Counted from the first letter of the stretch, positions 40,129 through 61,113 are shown. The stretch is DNA of 64,000 bases from Bacteriovoracia bacterium (GCA_050246755.1 JBFWVL010000005.1:128001-192000), one strand, 5' to 3'. The notes: generated by a model from the sequence alone, not told the origin. A program made the numbers and translations.

Positions 40129-41302
40129 TCGCACGCGACACCTCCAGGGAATCAATTTCTCCGCGAAGGACGCGCGCAAGGCGGGCCTCGTGGATCGTTT
40201 GGTGAACTTTGACGATTTTCTTTCCCTCTGCCGGTTCCATCGTTGCCCACTCAAGAACAGGAACACGCCCGCGAATCCCAGCGCAGCAGTTCGAGCATCC
40301 TTGCTCGAACCGCTCGCGGGCTCGCATTGCGGAAGGTCTCTTTCGGCGGTCGATGCGTTGGAGCCATGCAGCCGTATCCATTGAGGGCTCAATCGCGCAA
40401 TCTGCGCAAAGCCGCTGTTCCAAACGCTGCGCAATCGAGAGTCTCAGATTCGATTCCATCACGATACGTTCGACGCCGAGACCTGCGAGACGCTCGATAA
40501 CTTCGAGCGAACCGTTTGCGTGAAGTGTTGTGAAAACAAGATGCCCGGTTTCCGCCGCTTGAAAGCAAAGTTTTGCCGTTTCGGCATCTCGAACCTCGCC
40601 GACCAGGATCACATCGGGGTCCTGCCGTAGCACGGATCGCAGAGCATCGGCGAAGCTCATCTTGCGGCTGACCTGCACTTGATTGAGTCCTTCAATGCGG
40701 TATTCGATGGGATCTTCCAGCGTCACTATGTTGAAGCGCTTGGGGTTGATGGCTTTGAGGCACGCATAGAGAGTTCGCGATTTTCCACTTCCAGTCGGCC
40801 CGGAGACGACTACAACGCCATCTTCGAGTGAAATGGCTCGCCTAAGAGCGGCGATCTCGTTCTCCAGGAAGCCCAGGCCATCCAGCTCGAATGTCGCATC
40901 GAGGTTGAGCAAGCGCATGACGATCTTTTCTCCGAAGTGAGTAGGCAGAAGACTTACGCGTACATCCATTCGGAGACTTGGCATCGACGCGCGCCCATCT
41001 TGCGGGCGACCGCTAACGCCAATCGAGAGACCGAAAATTCGTTTGGCTTCTAAGATCAAGCTCTCCCTGTGCTCCAGTTCGACCTGCTTTTCAAGGATGA
41101 GATTTCCGTCCACGCGGAGTCTTAAATCAACTCCGCTCTCATGCGGCTCAATATGCACGTCACTCGCGCCGCGAGCCTTCGCCGCTTTCATCAGGTCGTG
41201 AAAGAGGCGCGCATAGGGACCGCTCTCCAAAAGCAACTGCTCGCTCGTTCGCCGTTTGGCGACGCTTACGCCGTGTTCCTTCTCAAGCATTATTTCCGTC
41301 AC
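40121..41302 (-). CDS. GspE/PilB-family secretion ATPase
   Basis: ASDVHIEP, PQDGR, GPTGSGKS, TLEDPIE, LRQDPDVILVGEVRD, TGHLVFTTLH and a Cys Zn site. Confidence 0.9.
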   Translation of the reverse strand: MTEIMLEKEHGVSVAKRRTSEQLLLESGPYARLFHDLMKAAKARGASDVHIEPHESGVDLRLRVDGNLILEKQVELEHRESLILEAKRIFGLSIGVSGRPQDGRASMPSLRMDVRVSLLPTHFGEKIVMRLLNLDATFELDGLGFLENEIAALRRAISLEDGVVVVSGPTGSGKSRTLYACLKAINPKRFNIVTLEDPIEYRIEGLNQVQVSRKMSFADALRSVLRQDPDVILVGEVRDAETAKLCFQAAETGHLVFTTLHANGSLEVIERLAGLGVERIVMESNLRLSIAQRLEQRLCADCAIEPSMDTAAWLQRIDRRKRPSAMRARERFEQGCSNCCAGIRGRVPVLEWATMEPAEGKKIVKVHQTIHEARLARVLRGEIDSLEVSRAND

Positions 41303-44300: not shown

Positions 44301-44352
44301 CCATCACAGCAATCGAAAGCGGAACATCGTTTTGGGTCTTGGCAGTGTTCAA
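41299..44352 (-). CDS. TraD/VirD4 coupling protein fused to a C-terminal TraU-like Cys-rich domain
   Basis: N-terminal TMs, GSIGSGKT, IIDEYQ and ATQS; then a signal-like segment, SYYVPQTFIEVW and WGTFYPRYG (TraU-like). Confidence 0.8.
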   Translation of the reverse strand: MNTAKTQNDVPLSIAVMAFVVVAAGYVYLNFLRFEPAKMLVVEELLQQHGAFWWWSVVAFACNLSFLGIFLKRSVGLERQGSKLQILQGKAERWAITRAEILAAIFSAVAYLGAKRSVVVDLAPFFLRLISANATSLAEVGLSANLAGAFYFVCRMILRLAGSLRFNLSDTHKLERPVQESGDMVLGTTPGALEAVEDKDREEWVTIPSRGVHGGVFISGSIGSGKTQGTILRYLRQLLAEPKGPPSILAIDPKGTFLREAENMIRRLGLGDRIVRLSLKGNVSFNPVFMENPLQDSKFVALAEMVRCAAVNFMGKSSDSPFWDVSSSHLIRNTIAYCSAVHGYFTLLDLYRTIVRAAKNNLADDLRKVLKEKNFTQEEAFNIGCAIEYFENEYSQLEDRVRTGIVATSTAFVNQFQEFAASRIFCPRKEHLSIHSMEDFVRSGKILLFDIQQPGLARSMGTFIKLHYEQAVLNLLSELKEKNMPVTSALIIDEYQDVVTCGGGGTLGDDSFMAKARESKPAVIVATQSLSSLMNTVGRERPALELVQNFRTRVACHSSDLETIKMFQALAGKEDVESQTHSFSETAQSAKLNLLAGGFDSKNSSLNEAVSRGTRREDILTGKEFSRLRTFEAFAQVFDGIETKFLKLYLKPDFLKAVNTKHETVLEMLRVTKKGGFVAWLKSFSRNSRAVAASLLLAGNVQAAGIPNVCSVASSPAFSSCLELAVGGCTCGYPPHPCALISYYVPQTFIEVWPEAKTSYFTAIPGAAAQLSKVTPMPFGAEADDDTQSFQARTIAVPFASMTFKLMPAGGTRNEKMCFDGMSEDFGSHWNTGKGDLTQPLFLAWSLSPKACLLAGAATSISGTPGSSYSSDSAMCGTPMPNIGVLPPSSHPACNGWGTFYPRYGTYTGPASMAGALMIASRIKSLSAEVLHTMPSGPDEKWQMIYPQSSSCFREGQNIGLLETIKNSRETMRLASGKLKGYLFVIWNRTTACKEMPTAVQAQAAALAIPAACAGAQ

Positions 44353-44366
44353 TCAAATTCCTTTCT

Positions 44367-44411
44367 AAAAAACCCACCTCGGAGGCCGGGGGAAACTGCC
44401 CCCGAGGTGGG
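44367..44411 (-). terminator. Intrinsic terminator between the lipoprotein gene and traD
   Basis: Minus strand CCCACCTCGG…CCGAGGTGGG followed by TTTTTT. Confidence 0.7.
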
Positions 44412-44431
44412 AAACACAGGAGGAAGAAAGA

Positions 44432-45445
44432 TCAGCGGTAGGTATCGGTCAGGTCGTCGGTAATAAGATCGCTAGGATAGAACTTCATCGAGACGGACTT
44501 TCCCATCATCGGAAGCGAATACGCCTTATCATTCGTGAACACAGTGAGATCACGAGTGAAGCGAAGAGTAGCCTCGTCATCGCCGAATCCCAGGTTCAGA
44601 ACGCCGTTGTACAGTTTGAGCGAACCGTTCACTCGGCTCCAGTAACCCGTGTCGATAATGTACGTCGTTACGAATCCCACGGTTGGCGCAGCTCCTTGCG
44701 CCACGATCGCGTATGAGCCGTCATTCTGAAGAATGAGGCGCATGTTCTTGATGAAGAATCCGTTGACGTAAATCTGCTGGTCTGAGTAGAGAGCGTTCAG
44801 TTGGATCGTCGAGCGGTCCGCACGCGCTTGAAACTTCTGGAACTCTCCAAGAGTGTCTTCCGGATTCGGGCACGTCTCACGCTCAGACTTGATCGCCGAA
44901 GTAGACCAAACCATGTGGCCCATAACCATGCGTCCACCAAGACCAGGGCTCATCATATCCTTCTTGTAAAGGATGTTCGCCTGAATCCGCTTATCGACCT
45001 CTCGACCGACAATCTCCATTACGTCGCCGAGAACGAGCTTCCCGTTCACTTGAGAGTAGTTTCCGGACACCACGCGCGATTTCATTTTCTTGTAGGCGTA
45101 ACCGCTGTCGGTGTACTTCAGGATGTATTTCTCGGTAATCTCCACTTCGAAACGCTTGTTCGGATAGAGCAGAATTCGCGAATCGACCATCACGTCCTGG
45201 CCGTCTCGCTGACCGATCACCACGTCGTCGGCAGTCAGGAGCTTGAAATAGAATCCTTGCTGTCCGCAGACTCCGCTCGTGTCGTAGAGGAAGCGGTTGT
45301 AGTCGAATGCTACGACGGGCTTCGGTTGATTCCCGGAATCGTCCGGCACGCCGACGCCACCGACGGTCTCGCTGGATTCGACTCTACCTGAGCACGCTGC
45401 GAGGGTGAGGGCCATCATCAAGAGGGCTGTGATCTTGAACTTCAT
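44432..45445 (-). CDS. Beta-rich lipoprotein at the head of the tra region
   Basis: Lipobox LAAC; two similar beta-rich halves. Confidence 0.75.
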   Translation of the reverse strand: MKFKITALLMMALTLAACSGRVESSETVGGVGVPDDSGNQPKPVVAFDYNRFLYDTSGVCGQQGFYFKLLTADDVVIGQRDGQDVMVDSRILLYPNKRFEVEITEKYILKYTDSGYAYKKMKSRVVSGNYSQVNGKLVLGDVMEIVGREVDKRIQANILYKKDMMSPGLGGRMVMGHMVWSTSAIKSERETCPNPEDTLGEFQKFQARADRSTIQLNALYSDQQIYVNGFFIKNMRLILQNDGSYAIVAQGAAPTVGFVTTYIIDTGYWSRVNGSLKLYNGVLNLGFGDDEATLRFTRDLTVFTNDKAYSLPMMGKSVSMKFYPSDLITDDLTDTYR

Positions 45446-45594
45446 ATCAGTTGTTCCTTTCAGATTCGTTGTTGTTGAAAAATGCCTTCAAACAAATCAT
45501 CGCGCGCACAAGGCGCACCGTTTGGCGCACGAGTGAGCGATTGCGCTGGCGCTCGGCGTCCGAAATCTTGTCGAGGACCCTTTGGAGTTGCGTC

Positions 45595-45852
45595 TCAATC
45601 GCCTGATCCATCGCGCGCCTCCTTTTGCTTCCTCGGCCCCGCGAAGCGCTCTGGACTCATGTAGCTTTTCTTGCGGGGCCAGTCTTCGACCCCTTGAAAG
45701 CGGCCGTCGTGGAAGATGAACCGGAAGCTGCCGAAGAGAAGGCCGCTGCCGGTTTCACGCGTATGCTGCGCCTGAAGCCGAGCGGCGGCCTCTTCCAGAA
45801 TTCGCGAATCTGGAATTTGGGCGAGCGTCGTGGAATCGTGTTTTGAATCCAT
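45595..45852 (-). CDS. Small protein, DUF2292/YezD-like motif
   Basis: AAGGAG RBS before ATG 45852; FGSFRFIFHDGRFQGVE. Confidence 0.55.
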   Translation of the reverse strand: MDSKHDSTTLAQIPDSRILEEAAARLQAQHTRETGSGLLFGSFRFIFHDGRFQGVEDWPRKKSYMSPERFAGPRKQKEARDGSGD

Positions 45853-46040
45853 ATTCAAACTCCTTGTCGGGCGAGCATCTGTTCGAGAACTCCGATTTCA
45901 AACGCAAGCTCACGGTTTGCAGCCAATTCCTTTACCGAGATCATTCCGTACCATTTGCGAAACTCGCGCTTCAGCACCGCCAAAGCAGATCGCAGACAGT
46001 AGTTAGAAAACCTTTTCGACTTGCTGTTCATAAGCGCACC

Positions 46041-46247
46041 TCAGAAATGACCGATAAGTCGCATCGCCTTGACACGATTTTGTTCGATATATTCCTGCTC
46101 AGGGGGCGCCGTAAAAATTGCGGTCAGGAGCCACCCAATCGGCCTCCAAACAGCAACGATCACCACTTTCACAGTCCTGGCTATCGCCTTCACTTCCAGG
46201 TACAGATTCGGTCGGTTCTGAACTACGAACGGTAGAATCTCTTGCAT
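46041..46247 (-). CDS. Small hypothetical protein (68 aa)
   Basis: AAGGAG RBS; follows the zinc-ribbon gene. Confidence 0.6.
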   Translation of the reverse strand: MQEILPFVVQNRPNLYLEVKAIARTVKVVIVAVWRPIGWLLTAIFTAPPEQEYIEQNRVKAMRLIGHF

Positions 46248-46266: not shown

Positions 46267-46488
46267 TTAAACAGCGGCTCCGAGCGCGTATTCTTTCTCT
46301 CTGGGAAGAATCTCGCTCACGATTGATTTTGGTTTCACGGTCTTGAGAGCTGCGAGTGCCCAATCGGGAACAGCGCAGAGCTCTTCGGAGTGGGTCTCGT
46401 CATAGTTGCAGTTCACACAAAAGGCGTGAGTGCTGAATCTTTCCAAACCACGCTCACCACAACGGGGGCACATACAGAACTTGTTCAT
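46267..46488 (-). CDS. Small zinc-ribbon protein
   Basis: GAGGAG RBS; CPRC…CVNC. Confidence 0.7.
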   Translation of the reverse strand: MNKFCMCPRCGERGLERFSTHAFCVNCNYDETHSEELCAVPDWALAALKTVKPKSIVSEILPREKEYALGAAV

Positions 46489-46545: not shown

Positions 46546-46561
46546 TGCAAGAAGATGCCCG
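46546..46561 (-). promoter_or_regulatory. Putative sigma54 -24/-12 promoter facing the transfer region
   Basis: Minus strand C-GG-GCATCTTCTT-GC-A (GG-N10-GC, TTGCA); the -24 element is imperfect. Confidence 0.5.
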
Positions 46562-46634
46562 AAATGGTCACAGCAGATAAATAGTGGGATTGCTGAAGGA
46601 ATCCGTAATCTCGGAAAAAACGAACTTTCTTAAA

Positions 46635-46757
46635 TGGTCTATCTAAATAGACCCGAGTCTTTTGAAATAGACCCGCGCCAGATTTTCTGGCTCAGGTCTT
46701 CGCTGCTGCGATCTGGATAAAGGGATCTTAGAGAAATGAGTCTACAAAAACAGACTC
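46635..46757. promoter_or_regulatory. Three copies of the GAGTCT-N8-AGACYC palindrome (candidate enhancer sites)
   Basis: TGGTCTATCTAAATAGACCC 46635-46654, GAGTCTTTTGAAATAGACCC 46655-46674, GAGTCTACAAAAACAGACTC 46738-46757. Confidence 0.75.
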
Positions 46758-46773
46758 GGGGTACGCGAACGCG

Positions 46774-47802
46774 TTAGCGTGCTGCGGAACTGAATGTCCT
46801 GCCGCCGAGAGACGCGGAAACTTCGCTTCCTCGAACTTGAACGGAGAAATCCGAATTGGATAGGGAGCATCCTTTGTCATTACTCAATAGCTTCGCAATG
46901 TAGAGGAAGCCTGTGGGCATCAGCGACGCGATTCGCCCTGAATTTAAAAGCTCCGAGACTAAAGACGCTTCACGGGCCGCGCCCTTCTCGAAAACAGCCG
47001 GAAGAGTCACGGGCAAGTAGTTGTCGTGCTGGTCTGAATAGGCATGAACCTGCGCTTCACCTACGAACTTAAAGAAATAGGGAACGTCACCTCGTCCGAG
47101 TTGCTCGACCTCGGAATCAAAAAGCGGAATTTCGGGTGGCTTCTGAAAAGCTAAGCGGTAGTGGATTGTATCTCTTAAGATATGGCGAATCGGAATCTTC
47201 TTGAACGTAGCTTGCTGGTCTTCGAACACGCGCTGTATCCCCGCAAGGTTCGAAGTGATGCACGAAAGTACGTCATAGTAACCGCGAAGAACAATCTCGA
47301 TTTGCTCAGAAGAAACAATCGCAAGGCTCAATATTGACGAAGCACCGCAGAGGTCGGCGTCGACTTCCTTAAACGGCAGTAAAAGCGTCTCATGCGGAAG
47401 CAGCAAGCGGGAAAGAACCACTTCAGCATCAACGACTTGAATGTGCGTCTCCGTCTTTACCACGTTATTTCTGTGCAAGTCGCGGATTCCGAAAACATAG
47501 CAGTATCCGAGGAGCACACCGAGACTGTACAAATGGGAGCCTGTACTTGGACCCATAGACGCGCGCACTTCCCGGGAAGACCCCTTGAAGTCAGCGCCCA
47601 TCTCTATTTCGAGATTGAAAATCGTCTGCGCAGGGGAAGCTGAGAACGTCGAATTTTTGAAGAAAAATGAGAGTGGACTGTCCTTACCAAAGAACAGCCA
47701 CTCCCAATAGATTGGGCGAGGTTTCTGAAAGATCATTTCAGAACCCCGTCCTATCTTTTGGACCGATTGTCCAAAATTATGGAAATCAGCCTCGAACTTC
47801 AT
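46774..47802 (-). CDS. Stand-alone minimal LanM-type dehydratase/kinase (DUF4135), no cyclase domain
   Basis: QKPR, DLHRNN, VDAE, RHILRDT and EQLGRGDVPYF match LanM dehydratase-domain motifs. Confidence 0.85.
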   Translation of the reverse strand: MKFEADFHNFGQSVQKIGRGSEMIFQKPRPIYWEWLFFGKDSPLSFFFKNSTFSASPAQTIFNLEIEMGADFKGSSREVRASMGPSTGSHLYSLGVLLGYCYVFGIRDLHRNNVVKTETHIQVVDAEVVLSRLLLPHETLLLPFKEVDADLCGASSILSLAIVSSEQIEIVLRGYYDVLSCITSNLAGIQRVFEDQQATFKKIPIRHILRDTIHYRLAFQKPPEIPLFDSEVEQLGRGDVPYFFKFVGEAQVHAYSDQHDNYLPVTLPAVFEKGAAREASLVSELLNSGRIASLMPTGFLYIAKLLSNDKGCSLSNSDFSVQVRGSEVSASLGGRTFSSAAR

Positions 47803-47808
47803 TGGCAG

Positions 47809-47889
47809 TTAGTTTGAGCTACTGCCAGAGATGTAAGAGTCTGCTTCGGCCTCAAGTGCCGCCAGATTAATTACGATTTGCTCTTGCAT
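47809..47889 (-). CDS. Unannotated 26-aa RiPP precursor peptide MQEQIVINLAALEAEADSYISGSSSN
   Basis: AAAGGAG RBS; TAA at 47809-47811, 6 nt before the DUF4135 ATG; acidic leader and Ser-rich C-terminus. Confidence 0.8.
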   Translation of the reverse strand: MQEQIVINLAALEAEADSYISGSSSN

Positions 47890-47910
47890 GGTCTCTCCTT
47901 TCTTTCTTGT

Positions 47911-49704
47911 TTAGATAACACCCAGAAAGGAAGCCTTTTCAGGCTGCCCCCCACTAATAACCGGTACAATTCCTAAATAGTCTTTCGACAGCCAACGCAC
48001 TCCGAGGCGGTTTGTCCGACTTCGTACTTCAGCGTTTTCCGCCATGCCCGAAATTAAGATACTTTCAAAAGACAGGCCAAATCTCTCGATCAAATCGAGT
48101 CCGCTCGCGTCCTCATCCTTCAAATCACAATCGAACAGATAAAGTCTTTCGCCGAATTCTCCATGACCATTGGCTTCAATCCAATTGGTGAACGCCTCCA
48201 CTGAGGAGAGGTGAACTACTTCTGAAGGTATGGTTCCGAGCTCAGATAGCCTTCGCTGCCAGAGCGAATGAATCAGCGAGTCGTCATCTACAATGACAAC
48301 CTTCCCCTTGGCGGGAAGTTCAACGCAGTCCAGGAAGAGGTCTACTTTCCTAGAAAGTGGAATTCTCACCGCGACAGTTGTTCCTTCACCGATGGAAGAC
48401 TCAATTTGAATTGAGCCTCCAACCTTTTGCAGAACTTCTTTCGCATGGGTGAGCCCAATGCCGTTGCCGTGAGGTTTGCCAAAAGTAATCCTCTCGCTAA
48501 GAAGTTTCGAAAGAACTTCCTGCGGAATTCCTGTTCCATTGTCCTTAAAACGTATTTCCAAAGTCTCTTCGACTTTAGTTCCCGCTATGGTAATTCGTCC
48601 GCCTGTCCCAATGGCCTCGAAAGCATTGTCCAGGATCGTTGCGAACACCGTTTCGAGATCGCCGAGTGTCATGGCGCAAAATGAACCGAAGAACGCAGAT
48701 TCGTTTACGAACTCAACAGACGCTCGGAGGCTGGCGTACTGCGCCCGCTTTGAATCAGAAACGGTTTTGATTGTAGATAAAATGTGAATCGGCTCTTGGG
48801 TGGAAATCGATTCCGCCAAAACATTCGCGGCGGAGCTGCGATTCAACAAGCTGCCCGAAACGTCCTTTAAAGATGCAACGCAATCATTTAGGCTACGCTT
48901 GTCCTTCAACGAAAGATTCGGGATTTCATTGATTCTTAGCTGGAGAGTCGCAATCACGCCCTTAATAGCGTGTGCAACTTGCTCAGCCAGAGCCAAACGC
49001 AACTTATCCATTCCGACTGTTGCTAGATTCCTTTCCAGAACGACAATCTGCTTTAGTAACGTGGAAATCGAAGTAGTCAGCTCCTCAATCTCAAGAATTT
49101 GCGAGCGAGCGACTGGAGGCTCCTGTGCATGAGCAGAGTCAGGAAGCCCTTTTGCTACAAATTTGAGCCACTGAATTCGATTTTCGAGCGGTCCAATTAC
49201 CAGGTTGATGGTCATTCGTCTCATCCACCACATCAAAACCAGGAATACGCATCCAATGAACAGCGCAATCGAGGCAAGCAGTAGAACTCCGGATTGGATG
49301 AAACTCGCCAGGCTGACCTCTACGATGATCGAAAGCATCTGACCGGAGGGAAGGGGCGTTGTCTCTTCCACTCGCGAATGGAAAATTCCGAAGGGCTGCA
49401 ATTGCCCAGCATGGCTAATCAGCTTGCCGTCGAGTGAAATGTCCACGCGTAAATCCAAGTCTTGGGTCTCTTTCCACGTTTGTGTGAATCGCGCGATCTC
49501 CTTGTCGATCTCGTTCACGTTCTGGGAGTTCACGCCTGCTTCGGCCAACGCCGCAACATGATTGGTTACGAATCGCATTGCTTGGGTTTCTGTCTTCTTC
49601 AGCGAGTAAACGGAGTATGCGAGCAAAGCCAAGCCCGCAGCCCCAAGGCTCAGGGCCAGGCCGCGTTTTAGAATGCTGAGAATGACAGAGTAGATCGAGG
49701 TCAT
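47911..49704 (-). CDS. Hybrid sensor histidine kinase with C-terminal receiver domain
   Basis: Two TMs with a short periplasmic domain, QVAHAIKG H-box, DNAFEA, DNGTGI, GNGIGL; receiver IVDDD…LFD. Confidence 0.9.
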   Translation of the reverse strand: MTSIYSVILSILKRGLALSLGAAGLALLAYSVYSLKKTETQAMRFVTNHVAALAEAGVNSQNVNEIDKEIARFTQTWKETQDLDLRVDISLDGKLISHAGQLQPFGIFHSRVEETTPLPSGQMLSIIVEVSLASFIQSGVLLLASIALFIGCVFLVLMWWMRRMTINLVIGPLENRIQWLKFVAKGLPDSAHAQEPPVARSQILEIEELTTSISTLLKQIVVLERNLATVGMDKLRLALAEQVAHAIKGVIATLQLRINEIPNLSLKDKRSLNDCVASLKDVSGSLLNRSSAANVLAESISTQEPIHILSTIKTVSDSKRAQYASLRASVEFVNESAFFGSFCAMTLGDLETVFATILDNAFEAIGTGGRITIAGTKVEETLEIRFKDNGTGIPQEVLSKLLSERITFGKPHGNGIGLTHAKEVLQKVGGSIQIESSIGEGTTVAVRIPLSRKVDLFLDCVELPAKGKVVIVDDDSLIHSLWQRRLSELGTIPSEVVHLSSVEAFTNWIEANGHGEFGERLYLFDCDLKDEDASGLDLIERFGLSFESILISGMAENAEVRSRTNRLGVRWLSKDYLGIVPVISGGQPEKASFLGVI

Positions 49705-51227
49705 TCAACGCTCATTTCGACGCTTTCAAGAGGGAGCGTGTGAATCCCAAGCGGATGCGACGGCACTGACTTCACCCGACGGCTCCAAAGCCCAGAGGCT
49801 TCAGATCCGAAAAAAAGCGGAATCACAGTATTGTGTGCCAGAATTTTCTTTTGGATGTCCTTGTAGGCGTTCGCTCTGTCTTCTGGATCAACAATTTGAA
49901 TCACGTTGAGCAGAGCACTATCGACAGCTTTATCATCGACGTAAAAGTAATTAGATTCGTATTTGCCTTTGAAATAACCAAGGACAGAAAAGCCATCGGG
50001 GTAGTCCATCGCTTTTCGTGCGATGATAGCTTGGGACTTTTTCCCGAAGAGGCGCTGGAGTTTCTCACCCTTTGACAGTGCATTGAGCTTCACGGTTACG
50101 CCAAGTAGCGCCCACTTCTCTTTTAGAAAAAGTGCCGTCTTCTCTTCCAAGTTTGATGCGCCCTCGTAGTCCATCTCAATGACGATTGGCTTCGACGGTT
50201 TTGCCGACTTCATCGACTTCAACTGCTCCACGTCGGTTGCACTAAGTTCTCCGGCTAGACCAAATGGAATCAGGCCAAATGCCGCGCGATAAGACTGATT
50301 GCCAAGACTGCGAATGATTTCTGCGGAATCTACGGACGAATAGAGCGCGCGCCGCACATCACTCGGGACCTTCTCAGGATTGAAAACTACAAAAACTTCT
50401 CCCGCAAGTTCAGTAGCGGCGGCGGCCCAGCCCTGCTTTTGGAGTTTGGCCTTCTCGATATCGTCGATCCGATAGTGGTCGAGTGTATCAATCTTTTCAG
50501 CCAGCGCGAGCTCAACGGGTTTCTCGGCGACCATCGAATACGAAATGGATTTAGGAGGCAATGGGCTGTCCAGAGCGTCAGGTCTCCATTTCTCGATGGT
50601 GAGATTGGTCTTTGTTACTTCGCCGACGAGTTTGTAAGGGCCGCTAAACGCTCCCTTTGCTGAAATCTCCGGATTCTGTTTGAAGTCGTCAATCGGAAGG
50701 ATTGAGCAATCGGCTACAGCGAGTTGCTTCAGGAAAATGGCCGAGGGCTCGCTCAGTCGGAATTCGACAGTTTGATCGTCGATTGGAACCACTCCGAATT
50801 TTCCGATCTCCTGCTGGGTCTTGAATGCCCTCGCACCAGAAATGTAGTCAATGTCAGCGGCCATCGACGCTCCGACAAGAAACATCCTAGCGAACGTCAT
50901 TTGGACATTCTTGGCGGTGATCGGTTTTCCATCGGAAAATGTGGCTTTGCGTATTTTGAAGCGGTACGTCTTGTGATCTTCCGATTCAGTCCACGATTCC
51001 GCCAGGTCAGCGCGGATATCTCCGGTCGTGTTGTATCGGAGAAGCCCACGGTACAACTGAGTAGCCACAGCCATCGAGTACGCGTCTTCCATTTTCTGCG
51101 GATCGAGATTCATCGCCACCGCCGGCAAATGAATTCGCAACCCTTCAATCGCAGGAGTTTTAGATTTTGTGCAACTGACCATCACAGCTCCTAAAAGGAT
51201 GAATGCAACACCTCTACAAACGTGCAT
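49701..51227 (-). CDS. OppA/DppA-family (SBP_bac_5) peptide-binding lipoprotein, no ABC permease or ATPase nearby
   Basis: Lipobox VSC, LDP, LAESW, FSDGKPITA and SGPYKL. Confidence 0.9.
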   Translation of the reverse strand: MHVCRGVAFILLGAVMVSCTKSKTPAIEGLRIHLPAVAMNLDPQKMEDAYSMAVATQLYRGLLRYNTTGDIRADLAESWTESEDHKTYRFKIRKATFSDGKPITAKNVQMTFARMFLVGASMAADIDYISGARAFKTQQEIGKFGVVPIDDQTVEFRLSEPSAIFLKQLAVADCSILPIDDFKQNPEISAKGAFSGPYKLVGEVTKTNLTIEKWRPDALDSPLPPKSISYSMVAEKPVELALAEKIDTLDHYRIDDIEKAKLQKQGWAAAATELAGEVFVVFNPEKVPSDVRRALYSSVDSAEIIRSLGNQSYRAAFGLIPFGLAGELSATDVEQLKSMKSAKPSKPIVIEMDYEGASNLEEKTALFLKEKWALLGVTVKLNALSKGEKLQRLFGKKSQAIIARKAMDYPDGFSVLGYFKGKYESNYFYVDDKAVDSALLNVIQIVDPEDRANAYKDIQKKILAHNTVIPLFFGSEASGLWSRRVKSVPSHPLGIHTLPLESVEMSVE

Positions 51228-52392
51228 AACCAGCTCTTTGCTTCGCCTGAAATCTCGGCAATGTCATAAGGCCGAGTACGATCGCGCAAAAGGCTCCTCG
51301 CCACAGTCCATCGGCAAATACCGGGAGAACCTTGCTCCACGATCCCACCAGGAGTTCGCCGCTCGCAAGAATGACAACCATTTGAGTCATGCGCGCACTC
51401 GTGACTGCTCCCATCTTTTCCTGGGGTGTATCCATCTGAATGTGCGCTGAGATTCTATGAAGAATCAGCCAGTAAAACGTATCTTTGGAGAGAGCGAGAG
51501 CAACCGTTATCCAGCCCATGCCAGAAAAGTAGCCGAGCATGCCATAAGAGACCGCAAGCCCGATCCAAAGAGACGATGAACGCTCACTAAGGGAATTGGA
51601 CCGCTCGATATATCCGGCAAACCACACGGCGACTCCGTAGATACCAATTAGAAGTGCCATCCACTTTTGATCGTCGCCCACCAGACGAGCTGTGAAGGAG
51701 GTCGTTCCCATCATTGAAATGGCCAAGAGCAAATCTAAGACGGCAGCGCGACTATTGTATCTGTAGAAGTCGGCGAACTTCGCGAAGACACTCTCGGCAA
51801 ACGAAGCTGCTCGCTCAATCGTGGGCTCCGCAATTGGCAAGAAGAATACAATGATTCCATTTGCCGTGAATGTCGCGAGATCGAACCAGATCGCAGTTTC
51901 GAATGTCGAATACTTAATGATGGGCCACGCGCAAAGACCGGCGAAAAGTGTAGCTCCTTGAGTTGCCTTGTTGAACCAGATTGCGTGACTTGCATTCGAG
52001 GCATACGAAGTGTCTGCCAAGAGCTTCGTGATCTTCGCTTTGCTGCCTGCCTGGAACGAAACGATGGAAGTTTTGAGTAGACTGAAAGCAACGAGTAGCC
52101 AGTATCCGTGGTGGCCCTGTTCCCAGGCCCAAAGAATACCGAGTGAAGCCGCAGCCGCACCAAGTTCAGCTACAACGATGGTCAGCCGCGGAGAAATAGA
52201 ATCGGTAACATGCCCGAACAGGCCAGCAATGATTATGGGTACTAACCGCTGAAGACCTAGAATTAAACTGATGTGAAAAAGGTCAAAGCCCCCCTGAACC
52301 ATGAAGGCAACCAAGCAGATATTGAACGTGAAACTCCCAATGGAAGAAAGGAGCGTGCCCAAGTAAAACCAAGAGGCTAGGTTCATTTTCAT
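51214..52392 (-). CDS. MFS transporter, probable peptide exporter
   Basis: About 12 TMs, GHVTD motif A-like loop, QMDTPQEKMG. Confidence 0.85.
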   Translation of the reverse strand: MKMNLASWFYLGTLLSSIGSFTFNICLVAFMVQGGFDLFHISLILGLQRLVPIIIAGLFGHVTDSISPRLTIVVAELGAAAASLGILWAWEQGHHGYWLLVAFSLLKTSIVSFQAGSKAKITKLLADTSYASNASHAIWFNKATQGATLFAGLCAWPIIKYSTFETAIWFDLATFTANGIIVFFLPIAEPTIERAASFAESVFAKFADFYRYNSRAAVLDLLLAISMMGTTSFTARLVGDDQKWMALLIGIYGVAVWFAGYIERSNSLSERSSSLWIGLAVSYGMLGYFSGMGWITVALALSKDTFYWLILHRISAHIQMDTPQEKMGAVTSARMTQMVVILASGELLVGSWSKVLPVFADGLWRGAFCAIVLGLMTLPRFQAKQRAGYARL

Positions 52393-53870
52393 GATACTGC
52401 CTCCTCGGTCTCCGCAGACTCGCCGAGAAGACGTTTCTTTCTGTTGAAGTAAGCTGCCTTCGACATTCCGAGAAGCGTATAGAGGAATCTGTTATTCCCA
52501 TCGAAAAGCTTCAATCCGCTGGCTAGATACAAGCGTTCCATCCATTCGAGGGCCGACTGAAATTGCGCTGCGGAAACATCCTCCTTCGAGCGCGGAAGCA
52601 GTCCATCGGGAATGAAAATTAGCTGATCCGGCGAAACAGCATTCGGATCAAGGCCAAGGTGTTCAGGTTTCAACACGGGCCTGGAGGAACCCTTGATGTC
52701 AATGTAAGCGCGTTCAACCGCATTCTGAAGCTCTCGAATGTTCCCACGCCAAGGATATGCAGCGAGCACCTTGCGTGCGGGCACGGAAATCTTTCCCATT
52801 GGAAGTCGGCGCTTCAAAAACTCCTCGGCCAAATATTCGATGTCCTCTGGACGCTCTCTCAGCGCCGGGACGCGAAGGGAAATCTGATTGAGACGGTAGA
52901 AGAGGTCTTCTCTGAAACGTCCCTTTTTGATTTCGGCTTCCAGGTCTCGGTTTGTAGCCGCAATCACGCGCACATTCACGGTAACGGGCTTGATGGCACC
53001 CACTGGAGTAAAGGTTTGTTCTTGGAGAACTCGCAAAAGCTTAGCCTGCATTTCCAAGGGAACTTCACCGATCTCATCGAGAAAGATGTCACCACCGTCG
53101 GCAAGCTTGAATTGGCCCTGCTTCGCCTCTGATGCCCCGGTGAAGGCGCCTTTTGCGTGACCAAACAACTCACTCTCGAAAAGGTTCGCCGGGATCGCGG
53201 CGCAATTGACGGCAATGAATGGTCGCGAGGGATCGTCTTCTTGAAGGTTGAGATTCCTGGCTACTAGCTCTTTTCCGGTTCCGTTTTCTCCAGTGATAAG
53301 AACGTAGGAATGTGTTCCCTTCATTCTCAGGATGTCGCGACGAAGCTTCAAAGTAACTTCGGAAACGCCCAATATCTCGTATGAACGAACATGCGTTGCG
53401 AGCTTGGCCGTTAATTTCCGATTTTTCTCAAACTGCGTTTCGTTTTCCTGAATCAGAGTCCGATTTCGTCGAAGGATCGCAGCTTTCTCCAATACGTTTG
53501 CCACGCGAAATTTTAGGTTTGCTGCAAATTCATCCGAGCCTTTGATGACGAAATCGGCCGCGCCAGCCTTCATCGTTTCAATAATGGTTTCGGGCTGACT
53601 ATTTCCGGTCAACATCACGACAGGGAGCTCGGGCATTCGGCGCTTGAGGAGCTTCAAAAATTCCAGCCCTGAAATTTGAGGTAAACCAAAGTCGAGAAGA
53701 ACTAGATCGGGCCGGAACTGGCCGAGGACCCGCATCGCTTCAGTCGGCTCATGGACCGTCGATACCTCGTGCTCCTGGCGAAAAAGAGCTACAACGGACT
53801 CAGCGAAACGCTTGTCATCGTCTACGAGCAGAATCCTTAAAGCTGGTGTTCCTTCTGGGCTTTCCGGCAT
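52389..53870 (-). CDS. Sigma54-dependent (NtrC-family) response regulator
   Basis: Receiver LLVDDD/LLD, GENGTGKE, ESELFGH, GAFTGA, FREDLFYRL, WRGNIREL, C-terminal HTH. Confidence 0.95.
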   Translation of the reverse strand: MPESPEGTPALRILLVDDDKRFAESVVALFRQEHEVSTVHEPTEAMRVLGQFRPDLVLLDFGLPQISGLEFLKLLKRRMPELPVVMLTGNSQPETIIETMKAGAADFVIKGSDEFAANLKFRVANVLEKAAILRRNRTLIQENETQFEKNRKLTAKLATHVRSYEILGVSEVTLKLRRDILRMKGTHSYVLITGENGTGKELVARNLNLQEDDPSRPFIAVNCAAIPANLFESELFGHAKGAFTGASEAKQGQFKLADGGDIFLDEIGEVPLEMQAKLLRVLQEQTFTPVGAIKPVTVNVRVIAATNRDLEAEIKKGRFREDLFYRLNQISLRVPALRERPEDIEYLAEEFLKRRLPMGKISVPARKVLAAYPWRGNIRELQNAVERAYIDIKGSSRPVLKPEHLGLDPNAVSPDQLIFIPDGLLPRSKEDVSAAQFQSALEWMERLYLASGLKLFDGNNRFLYTLLGMSKAAYFNRKKRLLGESAETEEAVS

Positions 53871-53883
53871 AAGCCGGAGACAT

Positions 53884-53900
53884 AGCTAGGTTCATGCCAA
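53884..53900 (-). promoter_or_regulatory. Sigma54 -24/-12 promoter of the signalling operon
   Basis: Minus strand TTGGCATGAACCTAGCT fits TGGCACG-N4-TTGCW with exact GG-N10-GC spacing. Confidence 0.75.
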
Positions 53901-53983
53901 AACGGAGGGCTTTACTCAACTACCTAAAATTGCAGGAGAATGGCTCTGGCAGCGGCTCTCGGGTGATTTCGAGGTATCTAAAA

Positions 53984-54003
53984 GAGTCTATATAGATAGA
54001 CCC
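53984..54003. promoter_or_regulatory. Fourth copy of the GAGTCT-N8-AGACYC palindrome
   Basis: GAGTCTATATAGATAGACCC, about 85 bp upstream of the -24 element. Confidence 0.75.
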
Positions 54004-54090: not shown

Positions 54091-54504
54091 CTAACGGAAT
54101 ATGGCGAAGCTCGCTATCAGCTTGAGCAGATCAGCACATGCTCGGCCGCCGATCACAGCTAGGAAAATTTCAGCCCAACGGGGAAAGCGGAAGACCGGGA
54201 ATTCCAATTTCCAAGAATTGAATCCGTACCCACTTCTACGGTGGCCGGAAGCGATTACAGCTTGGGCGTCGATCATGACGAGTTGAGCTTGGTGCATCTT
54301 CTCGGGACCGTAGTGTTGAAAGAGCCGATATAGCTCGCGGCAGGGAATTTCGGACGGCTTTTTTTCAATGTCTAGGAGTCTCGCTTCGGAGATTCCGAGG
54401 GAAGCCGCAACTTGTCCCGCACTTTCTCTTCGCTGCGTTCGTGCGCTGTAAAGAAAGCGACCCAGCTTCCGATTCATCGTAGCCCTTACTAATTCTCTGT
54501 CCAT
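54091..54504 (-). CDS. XRE-family HTH protein with C-terminal hydrophobic segment
   Basis: AAGGAGG RBS before ATG 54504; LYSARTQRRESAGQVAASLGIS. Confidence 0.7.
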   Translation of the reverse strand: MDRELVRATMNRKLGRFLYSARTQRRESAGQVAASLGISEARLLDIEKKPSEIPCRELYRLFQHYGPEKMHQAQLVMIDAQAVIASGHRRSGYGFNSWKLEFPVFRFPRWAEIFLAVIGGRACADLLKLIASFAIFR

Positions 54505-54528
54505 CGTGCCTCCTTCAGCGATCACGCC

Positions 54529-54592
54529 GCATACGATCGTATGCACATTAGTTCAGAAAACCATCGAAAATCAAGTGCATACGATCATATGC
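54529..54592. promoter_or_regulatory. Twin 16-bp operators between divergent XRE genes
   Basis: GCATACGATCGTATGC (54529-54544, perfect palindrome) and GCATACGATCATATGC (54577-54592). Confidence 0.8.
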
Positions 54593-54605
54593 GCGATTTT
54601 CGGGG

Positions 54606-54854
54606 GTGCAGGTGGCAGAACGTGATTCATTAACCAGTGGCGAAAAAAAGCTACTGAAAGTATTTGGGACCCGCGTCAGAGCTATCAGGGAGCAACAGAA
54701 GAAGTCGGTGTACGACGTTACTGGTGACGACATGCCAATAAAGACTCGGCAACACTGGCAGATGATAGAGGCCGGGAAGAAGAACATTCAGCTCACAACA
54801 ATTTCAAAAATTGCTGAATCGCTGGAGATTTCTTCCGGTGAATTATTTAAGTAG
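54606..54854 (+). CDS. XRE/C-protein-like HTH regulator
   Basis: FGTRVRAIRE…IEAGKKNIQLTTISKIAESL. Confidence 0.85.
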   Translation: MQVAERDSLTSGEKKLLKVFGTRVRAIREQQKKSVYDVTGDDMPIKTRQHWQMIEAGKKNIQLTTISKIAESLEISSGELFK

Positions 54855-54882: not shown

Positions 54883-55953
54883 TTAGGGCAGGCTCTTCCC
54901 AAGGCGTTCGCACGCGGCGACCAATTCATTGGGAGTGGACTCGCTAGAGTACTTTACAATCCATTCACGGCGCTCATCCACCAGTTTTGACAGCTCACGG
55001 ATTTGGCTTTGTACATCTGGAACCGTTAGCCGATAGAATCCATGACTCTCACCTAAGACCTCCGCGATCACCTGTTCCATCTGAATTGCAAAACGAATTA
55101 AGTGCAGAGGCTCCTGGTGGTTTGCCAACTCCAAAATTATCTTCTGATTTGAACTTTTCTTTCTCGAAAACAGCTTTGTCAGAAATCCGCGTTCGCTCGG
55201 GTTTGTCATCGTCTTCAAATTCGATTCCATATTGAGGAACCATCGGCAACGAAGCTCCTTGAGCTGATGCTTCATCGCAAAGAGGTGATTCTTGTATTCA
55301 CCGCTATCTGGAGCCGCAAGCCTCTCCTTTAAGCTCTCGTAGATCGCCTCCAACTGCGCACTCAAATCGTTGCCCAGGAGCTCAATCTGCAAATCTACTT
55401 TCTTATCAATTCTCCCGATTTTTTTTGCATTGTCGTACCCCGAAATGATGTGAGCAGTTCCTACAATCAGTGCGCCGATATTCGCAATACGCGAGACGGC
55501 GCTTGGATCGATCTGCTTGGCCTGGGAAATAAACCTGCGACCGTTCTTGTCTACGGCGATTAGTAACTTTTCTCCGTTCTTCGTTACTAACTGAACTGCC
55601 GATTCCTGTTCAAGGAGTTGAGCCGTTGCACTTGGAAACCTCGCCAAGATGAGGTCACGCGCCTGCGCCGAATTGACAACTTCCAGGCCAACAATGAGAG
55701 CATCGGAGGCGCCGTCCGTTAAATGGGAATTCACCTCGCTCAATAGGCGGCCAGAAATTTGCTCACCAAATCTTGCAAAGTGAATCGCATCGCGAAAGCT
55801 AATGCCGGAAGTCGCACGGCTGTATGACCGAGCGAAAGAGCCTTCATCTGCGGAAGTAATCTCCGTCCGACGAGAACTTCTGGCGCGATAGCGTTTCCAA
55901 AATGCGATTGAAAGGGCGGCGCATACGGCGATCGCCGCCAACATCCAAATCAT
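54883..55953 (-). CDS. Membrane-anchored helical hypothetical protein
   Basis: N-terminal TM from ATG 55953; follows the SNF2 gene in the same direction. Confidence 0.6.
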   Translation of the reverse strand: MIWMLAAIAVCAALSIAFWKRYRARSSRRTEITSADEGSFARSYSRATSGISFRDAIHFARFGEQISGRLLSEVNSHLTDGASDALIVGLEVVNSAQARDLILARFPSATAQLLEQESAVQLVTKNGEKLLIAVDKNGRRFISQAKQIDPSAVSRIANIGALIVGTAHIISGYDNAKKIGRIDKKVDLQIELLGNDLSAQLEAIYESLKERLAAPDSGEYKNHLFAMKHQLKELRCRWFLNMESNLKTMTNPSERGFLTKLFSRKKSSNQKIILELANHQEPLHLIRFAIQMEQVIAEVLGESHGFYRLTVPDVQSQIRELSKLVDERREWIVKYSSESTPNELVAACERLGKSLP

Positions 55954-56011
55954 CTGTGCGCTCACACTCTGTATCAAGTTCGATCCCCATGTCTTATCGT
56001 CATTCAGTTGG

Positions 56012-59000
56012 TCAGACGATTTCAAACGACCCAAATGCAATTAGTTCCGGCTCTGAAGCAATGCTAGTTTTACTTTCCAGCGTAGCTATAAGCTTTTTCT
56101 CGCGGTCTCGGGAGTTCCTGCCAACTTCCGCCAGCTCTTCGTCGATCTTAAGTTGTTTGTCCTTCAGTTTGGAAATCTCAGAATTGATTTCGCTCTGAGC
56201 TTTGAGGGGCAATTTCCGCCGTTCCTTCTTCAGCTCCTCAATGCGCTTTTGGAGGTCGTCTTTCTCATATCTCTTCTGTCTTTCAAGGTCTTCAAAGAGG
56301 TGTTCGATTTTTTCCAATTCTTCATGATACAGCTCCTCCGTGTTTCCCATGAGGATTGCCTTTTGCCGTTCGACTTCCGTTTTTAGAAAATCACGGCAAT
56401 GGGTTCCAGTTGGAGGTGAACATGGTTTTTGGTCCATCTCGCTGCTGACGGTAATAAGCTTCGTAGCAAGTTCGATGTCGAGAGCCTGTTGCCCAATTAG
56501 AAAAATAGGAACTAGTACATCGAAAGACTCGATCCCGTTAATTCTGACTCGATGGAGTTCAAAAGATCCCTTCTGGCCGACGTATGGCTCTAGTAGGGAA
56601 ATCCGGTGACGGCCCGACATATTGAATTTGACGTGACCACTTAACACCGACTTCGGCACTAGGTCTCGAAATCCATTGTGTCCCGAGTGGATAAGCTGAC
56701 AATCGTCGCCACTTGTCTTTACAAATTTGTATAGAACTTCGGCTTCAAGCCCGCGGAAATTTTCTTTCAGCTTCAATTCCTGTCCGTCGTACTGCCTGGT
56801 GGACTCAGGCACTATGGAGAGCACACAGTCGCGAACCAGTGCCTGTTTTGCGTCTATGGCGTCCTTCGCCTTCTGGTGTACGTCTTTCAATCTCTTTTGA
56901 ACGTCTTCGTCAAATTCAGCCAGTAACTTTTCGCGGGCACCTCTTAACCGTTCATCGACGGCCTCGCGATTGTTCTCCATCATTTCGGCGAATTTTCGGT
57001 CGATCTCTTCGGGCGTCCGGCACGAAAGGTAAATCCCAAGGATTTCCTTTTCCACATCTGTACCAGATTGAATTGCCCCTAAGACTTCGTCTGATACACC
57101 GAATGCACCTTCGAAAAGATGGAATTTCTCGTCCAGCAATTCAAGAACACGTCTGTCTGCGTGGTTTCTTTTATTTACGAAATTCACAACCACCACGTCT
57201 AGTTTCTGTCCGTAACGATGACAGCGCCCGATTCGTTGCTCAATACGTTGTGGGTTCCAGGGAAGATCGTAGTTAATAATCAAGTTGCAGAATTGTAGAT
57301 TCAGTCCCTCGGCGCCGGCTTCAGTAGTAAGGAAGACTTTCTTGCTGTCCCTAAATTCATTCACGAGTCTTCGGCGGCTCTCTGCATCGCCGACGCTACC
57401 ATTGAAGAGGACAATATCGTTTTCAAGCGTAAGTCCCATTTGCTGAAGGACGTTGATGACATACTGCTGAGTCGTTTTGAATTCCGTAAAAATGACGGCT
57501 TTTTCCGGCCATCCTTCCGCTCTAGCTTTGCGGAACTGCTCTTCCAAGGCTTTCTTCAGCGCGTCGCCTTTGGTGTTCTCCCGAATCTTTTTCGTTAGGC
57601 AGATAAATTGTAGAACTTGTCTGGCTTCGATTAGAACCGTGTCATGAGACGGTCGTTGCGCAGAGAGATCGTCTCCCAAAGCTTCTTCAAGGTCATCTTC
57701 GTCATAGTTTTCGGAGATTTCCTCCTCTTCGCCGATCAAGTCTTCTAGTTCCGAAGGCGCGACCGATTCTCGCAGACCTTCGTAAGATTTCGGCCGCACG
57801 TTTTTGTAGAGGAGTTTCTCGAAGTCTTCGAGTTCGAGAGAACGCTTACCGTTATCAAGGGTCAGAGTTTTGCTTATTTCAGCCATGAGCTTCTTGTGAA
57901 GCTCACGGTCGTCGGCCTGAACTGCATAGAGAACGAACCGTTTGTAGATTCCGAGGAGACTATTCTTTAGAGCAAATGAAGAACTCGCCAGAAGTTTGCA
58001 GTAGATGAGCTTTAGCAGGTGGGAGGCCATCGGAGGAATACCCAGAATATCATCCCGAGTGAGGTAAGCCTCAAAATCCTTCCGCAGTTCTTCCTCTTCG
58101 TCGTCCGGATCAAATTCCAGCGTTATTGCGTGCCTCTGGGTGTATTTGATGAAGTCGCTGACATTTTTGCGAAGTTCTCTATGAAAGAACTTCTTCATTC
58201 GATACTTGAGTTCCGCAAGGCGCTCCTCGCGATCCTCGTCAGGAATTTTTTGAAAGGTGCGTTGAAAGCTCTCTTGAGTGCCGAGAATCGACTCCTCTAT
58301 GAAGGAGGTCAATCCATAGAGTTCCATCAAGTTGTTTTGCATCGGCGTCGCGGTCAAGAGGACTTTCTTGAAGGGCCGAATCGTTTCTCGAATTAGCTTT
58401 GCTCTCTGAGCCTGCTTTTTACCGGGCCGCCATACGTTTCTGAGCTTGTGCGCTTCATCGACCACGATCAAATCCCAAGCAATGCTCGCCAATTTTCCCG
58501 AATACTTATTAAAGAAGTGCTCATTCGTGATAACGATTTTTTCTTTCGCGTCGAGCGGAGATGGCTGTCCATTCTTCGTCGTTGCCTTGATTGACTGCGT
58601 GTCAATGATCCGGCTTTCCAGGCCAAAGAGATTCTGCAACTCATCTTGCCACTGATGGCGCAGTGATTTTGGCGCCACGATCAGGAATGAGCGTCTACCT
58701 TCTGCCCATAGCTGGCTGAGGACGAGTCCTGTTTCAATGGTTTTTCCAAGACCGACTTCATCAGCGAGAATAACTCCGCCAGCCAATGGATTTCGAAACG
58801 CAAAGGTAGCTGCCTCGACTTGGTGTGGGTTTAGATCGACTTTCGCTTCGATAATTGCTTGGTCCGTGGACTCACGGTCCCATTTTGGTTTTCGAAGCGT
58901 GAGGAGATTCATGTAGTAGAAAATCTGAAGTTCCGAGAGCCGATTATAGGCGGCAGCGCTGTCGCTCTTTGAATCTACGTTCCTCACGCTAGGCCACCCT

Positions 59001-59017
59001 TTGGAGTTGTTGCTCAA
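56012..59017 (-). CDS. SNF2-family helicase/ATPase
   Basis: LADEVGLGKT, DEAH, LTATP, EGLNLQ and QRIGRCHRYGQ. Confidence 0.95.
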   Translation of the reverse strand: MSNNSKGWPSVRNVDSKSDSAAAYNRLSELQIFYYMNLLTLRKPKWDRESTDQAIIEAKVDLNPHQVEAATFAFRNPLAGGVILADEVGLGKTIETGLVLSQLWAEGRRSFLIVAPKSLRHQWQDELQNLFGLESRIIDTQSIKATTKNGQPSPLDAKEKIVITNEHFFNKYSGKLASIAWDLIVVDEAHKLRNVWRPGKKQAQRAKLIRETIRPFKKVLLTATPMQNNLMELYGLTSFIEESILGTQESFQRTFQKIPDEDREERLAELKYRMKKFFHRELRKNVSDFIKYTQRHAITLEFDPDDEEEELRKDFEAYLTRDDILGIPPMASHLLKLIYCKLLASSSFALKNSLLGIYKRFVLYAVQADDRELHKKLMAEISKTLTLDNGKRSLELEDFEKLLYKNVRPKSYEGLRESVAPSELEDLIGEEEEISENYDEDDLEEALGDDLSAQRPSHDTVLIEARQVLQFICLTKKIRENTKGDALKKALEEQFRKARAEGWPEKAVIFTEFKTTQQYVINVLQQMGLTLENDIVLFNGSVGDAESRRRLVNEFRDSKKVFLTTEAGAEGLNLQFCNLIINYDLPWNPQRIEQRIGRCHRYGQKLDVVVVNFVNKRNHADRRVLELLDEKFHLFEGAFGVSDEVLGAIQSGTDVEKEILGIYLSCRTPEEIDRKFAEMMENNREAVDERLRGAREKLLAEFDEDVQKRLKDVHQKAKDAIDAKQALVRDCVLSIVPESTRQYDGQELKLKENFRGLEAEVLYKFVKTSGDDCQLIHSGHNGFRDLVPKSVLSGHVKFNMSGRHRISLLEPYVGQKGSFELHRVRINGIESFDVLVPIFLIGQQALDIELATKLITVSSEMDQKPCSPPTGTHCRDFLKTEVERQKAILMGNTEELYHEELEKIEHLFEDLERQKRYEKDDLQKRIEELKKERRKLPLKAQSEINSEISKLKDKQLKIDEELAEVGRNSRDREKKLIATLESKTSIASEPELIAFGSFEIV

Positions 59018-60998: not shown

Positions 60999-61113
60999 CC
61001 GGTTAGTCCGCCTTAGCTGTAAGCCTTTGAATTCACTTAAGCTTATCGGTAGTGCCACGCTAAAGGTTTAGGCCCTACGACGCGTGCAATTTCATCAAAC
61101 GCTGTAGAACGAG

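Follow-up and report, generated by a model that had tools for sequence, protein, structure and literature searches.

Shared palindromes as candidate enhancer sites ahead of the signalling and conjugation operons of a Bdellovibrionota integrative and conjugative element

A 64,000-nt stretch of DNA from a Bacteriovoracia bacterium, a member of the Bdellovibrionota (GCA_050246755.1 JBFWVL010000005.1:128001-192000; the whole stretch is called the window below), holds a 49-kb integrative and conjugative element (ICE) that is integrated at a tRNA-Met gene and whose conjugation proteins, identified with Pfam, are all encoded on the minus strand. An earlier note on this DNA had described one palindrome upstream of two promoters of the element 7 kb apart, which raises the question of what binds these sites and what they control. 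The genes downstream of the three clustered copies form the ICE conjugation operon, and the operon downstream of the single copy encodes a predicted peptide-signalling cassette. Comparison of the sequences suggests that the sigma-54 activator encoded by the ICE itself probably uses the four palindromes as enhancer sites and would drive both its own operon and the conjugation operon when its kinase senses a predicted modified peptide from the same cassette.

Four palindromes ahead of two operons

The earlier note placed copies of GAGTCT-N8-AGACYC at 46635, 46655, 46738 and 53984, and all four were found there, each between genes. The strict pattern holds for three of them, namely the single site (palindrome A, 53984-54003), the distal site on the transfer side (palindrome B, 46738-46757) and the distal member of a tandem (palindrome C, 46655-46674). 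The proximal tandem member (palindrome D, 46635-46654) reads TGGTCT-N8-AGACCC, with two mismatches to GAGTCT and one to GRGTCT, and retains the core RGTCT-N8-AGACY. Sites B-D lie between the cassette and five small open reading frames (ORFs) that lead into the conjugation genes, and site A precedes the cassette, which is on the minus strand.

The three strict matches in the window compare with 0.01 expected from shuffles. Across the genome (3.55 Mb), the core occurs seven times, four of them here, and the strict pattern four times, three of them here; the core with other spacer lengths (4-13) gave 1-5 matches each. When two mismatches were allowed, the count in the window was at chance (7 found vs 7.3 expected). 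One strict match elsewhere in the genome, C1:46166-46185, is a perfect extended palindrome that overlaps the start of a 629-aa gene; it has no strong sigma-54 box nearby and was treated as probably unrelated.

Palindromes of this kind might also be RNA hairpins acting as terminators, or chance repeats. A terminator scan does list all four as weak stem-loops, and site B lies 17 bp past a stop codon. However, the total from that scan equals the shuffle mean (12 vs 13.1), the stems contain just 3-4 G-C pairs, and the folding z score is -1.55. Moreover, site A lies above its promoter and outside the predicted transcript, and the arms often mismatch each other though each fits the half-site consensus, with the copies arranged as 20-21-bp tandems. 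This explanation is therefore scarcely credible.

The operon that follows site A consists of six genes in conserved order, encoding an activator, an MFS-like transporter, a peptide-binding protein, a kinase, a 26-aa peptide and a stand-alone LanM-type dehydratase. The activator (52389-53870, minus strand) is a sigma-54 enhancer-binding response regulator with a receiver domain (D60), an AAA+ domain carrying GAFTGA and a divergent Fis-type helix-turn-helix (HTH), as assigned by Pfam and alignment. Its C-terminus aligns with the HTHs of host activators at an hhalign probability of 96.5%, and the host has one rpoN.

The distances from site to promoter box, put earlier at about 75-95 bp for three copies and about 180 bp for the fourth, came out as 85, 74, 94 and 177 bp relative to the boxes at 53884-53899 and 46546-46561. 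The proposal that both boxes are sigma-54-type promoters applies well to the first, a strong, near-consensus -24/-12 box on the minus strand (TGGCA-T-N5-TAGC), and less well to the second, which is only formally GG-N10-GC and whose -24 GG is mostly not conserved among homologues. Transcription from the first box is predicted to start near 53873, 3 nt before the regulator ATG, so that the transcript would be nearly leaderless. A box resembling the site of integration host factor (IHF) lies between palindrome A and this promoter (53917-53929, minus strand) and agrees with 7 of 9 positions of the consensus. A promoter scan found no sigma-70-type promoter at either the regulator or the transfer promoter.

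For comparison we used 35 non-redundant close loci, including the window, which came from genome searches and a metagenome scan (19 loci). Nine duplicate pairs were collapsed, and the distant DUF4135 loci with another gene order (L061-L066, L082, L085 and L097-L102) stand outside all motif counts. Contig C72 of genome G295 carries the same matches and motifs as locus L001. Of the 27 loci with sequence above the regulator, 26 have a strong TGGCAY-N5-TNGC box there, taken as the best-scoring 16-mer within 170 bp. Among the 25 loci that extend for 200 bp or more upstream, 21 have their best palindrome within 230 bp of this box centred 90-104 bp above it, although that range makes up just 7% of positions; palindrome A, centred at 94 bp, shares this position with its homologues. 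Such a placement fits the 80-150 bp above the promoter given for enhancer sites in PMC7910581. In 7 of 26 loci, including the window, the activator gene lacks a Shine-Dalgarno sequence and its start codon lies 3-7 nt past the predicted transcription start; in 18 of 26 it has one, and the distance is 15-23 nt. These two spacing classes support the predicted start. The best same-strand IHF-like match begins at -55 to -58 in 16 of 26 loci.

The protein that reads the sites

The activator is the only DNA-binding protein found in all loci, and the palindrome changes with it. Site variants include GTCT (window and L001), GTCTC, GTCC, GTTCG, GTCGCC, GTAATC and GGCT, and they track the clade of the activator and the type of its recognition helix (for example SKAxYFNRKK, GKTRY or SRxFVH). 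The variant found upstream of each activator was scored on the unselected 3.2 kb of DNA downstream of every cassette; the model for L052 was set by hand, with its site at 97. Over 18 loci, the own variant scored a mean of 20.7, compared with 18.4 for the variants of other loci, and none of 20,000 permutations did as well, although kinship among the elements makes the permutation figures overstate certainty. With nine class representatives the figures were 21.1 for the own variant and 18.2 for the others. A cognate test on windows that had been chosen with the cognate model was circular and was replaced by this scoring.

Two near-perfect own sites occurred within the downstream 3.2 kb in 10 of the 18 loci, mostly in tandem with a 20-21-bp period. 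A third site often lies 61-93 bp further up from the tandem (six loci), as palindrome B does in the window. The tandem of L059 is weaker, those of L092 and L055, at distances of 5 and 2.5 kb, immediately precede the zinc-ribbon gene that opens the transfer-side operon, and L060, in which the transfer genes are inverted, has five further copies of its variant on that side.

The fixed position of the upstream site and the recurrence of the own variant downstream support the element's own activator as the binder. By these comparisons, the palindromes are very probably bound by that activator and not by an XRE protein or a host factor. The same two observations support the earlier proposal that one factor accounts for autoregulation and for activation of the downstream genes.

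Alternatively, the palindromes might be bound by one of the element's XRE proteins (54606-54854 or 54091-54546) or by a host activator. In the window, XRE genes lie beside site A, and a copy of the site with one mismatch (54376-54395) is found ∼210 bp above the gene for the 82-aa protein XRE82; in L054 a full copy (L054:3796) lies ∼170 bp above the XRE82 gene, and the host encodes 23 activator-like proteins. Yet homologues of XRE82 and XRE151 were present in only 4 and 1, respectively, of 26 loci with upstream flanks of 0.2 to 8.6 kb, and XRE82 has an operator of its own that is conserved in all four loci with the gene. Among the 75 strong sigma-54 boxes genome-wide, only that of the regulator is preceded, at 60-220 bp, by a relaxed site. 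Cassettes of this genome that are led by other activators have different palindromes, with 0-1 relaxed matches to the GAGTCT-type site. The site variant also differs with the activator where a single host, genome G280, carries two elements (L054 and L055). Binding by an XRE protein or a host activator is thus very unlikely.

The XRE82 gene (54606-54854) and its operator pair (54529-54544 and 54577-54592) form a separate system on the plus strand (54529-54854). The operators are a pair of GCATACGATC(G/A)TATGC palindromes, seen in the window, L054, L072 and L090, and they are likely to be autoregulatory. No copy of the activator site was seen above the XRE82 gene in L072 or L090; a link between the activator and the XRE82 regulators is possible.

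The transfer promoter and the evidence against the reading

The sigma-54-like box on the transfer side, CGGGCATCTTCTTGCA (46546-46561, minus strand), has a conserved -12 element, TTGCA, and a poorly conserved -24 element, and its predicted start is near 46535. It was compared in 17 loci, in all of which the -12 box served as the anchor. The distance from TTGCA to the proximal palindrome was 92.5-96.5 bp in 11 of 11 loci (96.5 bp from its G to the centre of palindrome D in the window), and an AT-rich stretch follows TTGCA. An IHF-like box occurs at -53 to -55 in 11 of 14 loci, not including the window itself, where the corresponding register (46578-46590, minus strand; placed by eye) is degenerate and weak. 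TTGCA was rejected as a sigma-70 -35 box, with no -10 element at 16-18 bp, and as a variant -24 box, for which the GC expected another 10 bp along is absent. A hairpin at the 5' end of the predicted transfer transcript was no more stable than shuffles (z -0.53). We classify the predicted transfer promoter as sigma-54-like and non-canonical at -24; it may be a low-affinity sigma-54 promoter that needs more activator. There is good reason to expect that the activator drives the transfer operon.

The first gene of that operon (46267-46488, minus strand) encodes a 73-aa zinc-ribbon protein (CxxC..CxxC) without an assigned role. In L059 a DksA/TraR-type zinc-finger protein (L059:8769-9197) takes its place as the first gene past the transfer promoter. 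A homologue of the zinc-ribbon gene on another element of the host genome (G000 C1:1318728-1318898) is accompanied by the same TTGCAATT box, with the GG only 8 bp from the GC.

Several observations weigh against the proposal that the activator drives both operons upon peptide sensing. At the transfer box, GG-N10-GC is present in only 3 of 17 loci. In 7 of the 17 (L054, L072, L090, L095, L050, L092 and L055), a good -24-type box, TGGCA(C/T), is placed a whole helical turn beyond the usual position, at 19-20 bp rather than 10 bp upstream of the conserved GC. The transfer-side IHF score shows a modest excess (7.5 vs 7.06 ± 0.17 in shuffles, with a maximum of 7.71). In L069, no strong box precedes the regulator, and the upstream site is partly unlike the downstream ones. 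Five loci of the GTTCG clade (L051, L074, L086, L087 and L088) have no downstream sites in the DNA fetched, which ends or runs into cargo genes, and a search for the tandem pattern in four GTTCG-clade genomes gave counts like those of the reversed control. The covariation of motif and activator would also be expected from common descent of the whole element. A match to the coupling protein or TraC was found in the flank of only 10 of 24 complete cassettes, a lower bound because the flanks were short and the queries were the window's proteins only. Pfam HTH_8 missed 10 of 11 aligned activators, and no recognisable leader protease was found in the cassette.

The departures at -24 raise the alternative that the activator binds all four sites but the transfer promoter is not a working sigma-54 promoter. 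The transfer-side sites might then repress, or act with another sigma factor or a co-activator, or read-through from upstream might feed the transfer genes. Sigma-54 promoters are typified by the GG dinucleotide (PMC7910581, PMC2725144), and no strong terminator follows the dehydratase gene. However, TTGCA, the IHF-like box and the tandem sites hold their spacing even where the two operons are parted by 1-5 kb of cargo (L054, L072, L090, L092 and L055) or by an inversion (L060). Working promoters with single-base departures from GG are known (PMC7910581), although most of these loci depart further. On balance, this alternative appears unlikely.

The predicted peptide signal and its circuit

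Between the kinase and dehydratase genes lies a previously unannotated gene with a strong ribosome-binding site (47809-47889, minus strand), which encodes a precursor-like peptide of 26 aa, MQEQIVINLAALEAEADSYISGSSSN. A peptide ORF was found in all 14 loci first examined. When the peptides were aligned on their I[ND]L motif, the Ser 15 residues after the Leu was invariant in all 22 correctly picked peptides, and the neighbouring residues varied; the pick for L089 was wrong, and L059 and L078 yielded no pick. Cys occurs in 2 of the 22 and not in the peptide of the window. Among codon positions of the peptide gene, the third differs most (0.63 vs 0.41 and 0.31).

The adjoining gene encodes a stand-alone DUF4135 enzyme of the LanM dehydratase type (342 aa; 46774-47802, minus strand), as identified by Pfam, fold and profile searches. 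Its predicted structure has a predicted local distance difference test (pLDDT) value of 90.7 and matches only LicM2 and CylM at E<0.001 in the fold search. A single-sequence search of the PDB with the dehydratase gave nothing significant, whereas profile and fold searches did match. Nine residues that are invariant in 14 DUF4135 sequences (D6, H8, K27, D108, H110, N113, D125, R206 and T212) are the counterparts of CylM D252, H254, K274, D347, H349, N352, D364, R506 and T512, to which PMC4550811 assigns phosphorylation and phosphate elimination; the D347-D364 and R506-T512 regions were aligned to CylM and the N-terminal D/H/K motif to LicM2. No LanC cyclase domain was found in the 342-aa protein or the other cassette genes, and the cassette has no LanT (C39-ABC) exporter-protease, an MFS-like protein standing in its place. 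The presence of LanM catalytic residues and a peptide, yet no cyclase, points to a peptide-signal-like circuit and not a lanthipeptide cluster. At distant DUF4135 loci with another gene order (L062, L065, L082, L085 and L098-L102), a small acidic precursor-like ORF lies directly upstream, and the (I/V)(D/E)L-type leaders of such ORFs suggest that the peptide family is wider.

The remaining cassette genes, all on the minus strand, encode an MFS-like membrane transporter (51214-52392; Pfam MFS_1 E=2e-4, under the curated cut-off), which is conserved in the cassette and is the predicted peptide exporter; a family-5, oligopeptide-type solute-binding protein with a conserved Cys19 lipobox (49701-51227); and a membrane histidine kinase with a short periplasmic domain (residues 36-134), an invariant His245, a HATPase domain and a C-terminal receiver-like domain (47911-49704). 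The binding-protein gene adjoins the kinase gene and has no permease of its own; no ABC permease for it was found among the ORFs scanned. With precursor, enzyme in the maturase role, kinase and regulator in one regulator-driven operon, the cassette has the layout of agr, in architecture only.

In the circuit that we propose, the DUF4135 enzyme would read the I[ND]L leader and dehydrate the invariant Ser, and the MFS protein would export the product, with the leader removed by a protease. The binding protein would capture the modified peptide and signal to the kinase, which would phosphorylate D60 of the activator. At site A the activator would open the strong promoter of its own operon, giving feedback, and a higher level of activator would then fill sites B-D and open the transfer promoter, which is the weaker one; IHF would bend the intervening DNA. 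We somewhat favour the peptide as the signal, and we lean to the same degree towards a signal that activates rather than inhibits.

The sequence does not fix the sign of the signal, and the same binder and sites could serve a circuit of opposite sign, in which the peptide marks ICE carriers, the kinase is switched off and transfer takes place when carriers are rare. The autoinducer of the Vibrio LuxPQ pathway turns its kinase off in this way. The position of the peptide gene inside the activator-driven operon is, however, the usual topology of an autoinducing loop, of which agr is an example, and is suggestive only. A precedent on an ICE is PhrI, whose accumulation lowers transfer of ICEBs1 (PMC5812530). 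A circuit of opposite sign is thus a possible but doubtful alternative to the activating circuit.

The element and its relation to known systems

The ICE has an integrase, a relaxase, a coupling protein, a TraC/VirB4-type ATPase and an attachment (att) repeat at the tRNA 3' end. Its left end is an 11-bp copy of the tRNA-Met 3' end (24180-24190, plus strand), 49 kb from the tRNA gene at C5:201546-201622. The tyrosine integrase gene (24280-25545, minus strand; Pfam) is followed by the co-directional conjugation region (25842-45445, minus strand), which encodes the coupling protein, the secretion ATPase, TraE/TraK/TrbI/TraC/TraG-like proteins, MobC and the relaxase, and by four small ORFs (68, 58, 87 and 54 aa; 45447-46247, minus strand) without a significant Pfam match. 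A 337-aa lipoprotein-like ORF precedes the coupling protein (44432-45445), and by eye a seemingly close copy of it occurs on contig C8 of the host genome (G000) near 6700-10138, before a coupling protein that is 75% identical. Cargo genes at 54883-64000 encode a SNF2 helicase, a DUF2779 protein, a radical-SAM protein and a TaqI_C-containing methyltransferase-like protein, which are possibly defence-related. No excised ICE joint or loose end was found at the att region in contigs of three runs.

A dehydratase match was present in 32 of 401 genomes of the phylum, distant forms included, and in 210 protein clusters. The MFS profile matched in 17 of 182, 4 of 127, 3 of 237 and 3 of 109 genomes in four groups, and in 0 of 8 other genomes of the host family. 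This patchy presence, and the fact that the closest activator comes from another class, suggest past mobility of the ICE. Neither the activator nor the MFS alignment picked up a relative in scans of viral contigs.

NtrC at glnAp2 is a sigma-54 enhancer system, and LuxO is the sigma-54 output of the LuxPQ pathway. In LuxP-LuxQ and CBP-ChiS (PMC8050422), as proposed here, an extracytoplasmic binding protein feeds a kinase, and CBP is likewise an SBP_bac_5 protein; their ligands are autoinducer-2 (AI-2) or chitin oligosaccharides, however, and not an operon-encoded ribosomal peptide. AatJ-AauS-AauR/Rbm of Pseudomonas syringae also comprises a binding protein, a kinase and a response regulator, with one inverted repeat, Rbm, that precedes both its own locus and another one related to secretion, but it is chromosomal, senses host amino acids, is accompanied by an ABC transporter and makes no signal of its own (PMC7386598). 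NtrC-type systems, including NtrC and Myxococcus Nla28 (PMC7910581), share the receiver-AAA+-HTH arrangement, sites ∼80-150 bp above a -24/-12 box, tandem sites and autoregulation. Unlike them, the present system has a GTC-N10-GAC core with lineage variants, is on an ICE and has a second promoter that keeps the -12 but mostly not the -24 element.

TraR senses an acyl-homoserine lactone, and staphylococcal agr unites precursor, maturase, kinase and regulator in one operon, with AgrB as the maturase and a LytTR regulator. In place of AgrB and LytTR, the present cassette has a DUF4135 enzyme and a sigma-54 activator. RapI-PhrI of ICEBs1 and TraR of ICEMlSymR7A are alike in that an element-encoded signal sets transfer, but PhrI is unmodified, re-imported and inhibitory (PMC5812530); in these sources none of RapI-PhrI, TraR and agr uses sigma-54. 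CylM and LicM2 share the kinase-like dehydratase fold and all nine phosphorylation and elimination residues (PMC4550811), whereas here the enzyme is a 342-aa stand-alone domain without a cyclase, 20 of 22 peptides are without Cys, and an MFS protein takes the place of LanT. A survey of DUF4135 left out proteins under 500 aa (PMC10676384), and the available text of PMC12715929 makes no mention of Bdellovibrio. Binding-protein-fed kinases (PMC8050422), a shared inverted repeat (PMC7386598) and peptide-controlled ICE transfer (PMC5812530) are each known; as far as these sources go, the combination is new. Full-text searches, which covered few subscription papers and no supplements, listed no description of the circuit, no report of sigma-54-driven ICE transfer and none in which a LanM dehydratase without a cyclase makes a signal.

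Quorum sensing by modified peptides has mainly been described in Gram-positive bacteria. We give an even chance to the wider reading that Bdellovibrionota ICEs control conjugation by an undescribed Gram-negative form of peptide quorum sensing, built from a stand-alone LanM-type dehydratase, an orphan peptide-binding lipoprotein, a kinase and a sigma-54 activator. As parts of that joint reading, one ruler-positioned Ser of a 24-28-aa precursor would yield a non-lanthionine signal whose element-specific flanks would be pherotypes, and the lineage-diverged palindromes would insulate co-resident elements. The displaced or missing -24 box would set the threshold of the transfer promoter and may represent an unusual use of sigma-54 promoters. 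The sites would be the wiring of the circuit, tying the predicted peptide-signalling cassette directly to the ICE conjugation genes. Because the family supplies at least seven site variants paired with their natural activators, together with natural variants of the peptide, specificity is directly testable, and the parts could be put to use as orthogonal sigma-54 switches. A conserved transfer promoter that lacks a canonical -24 box is likewise a testable oddity for sigma-54 biology.

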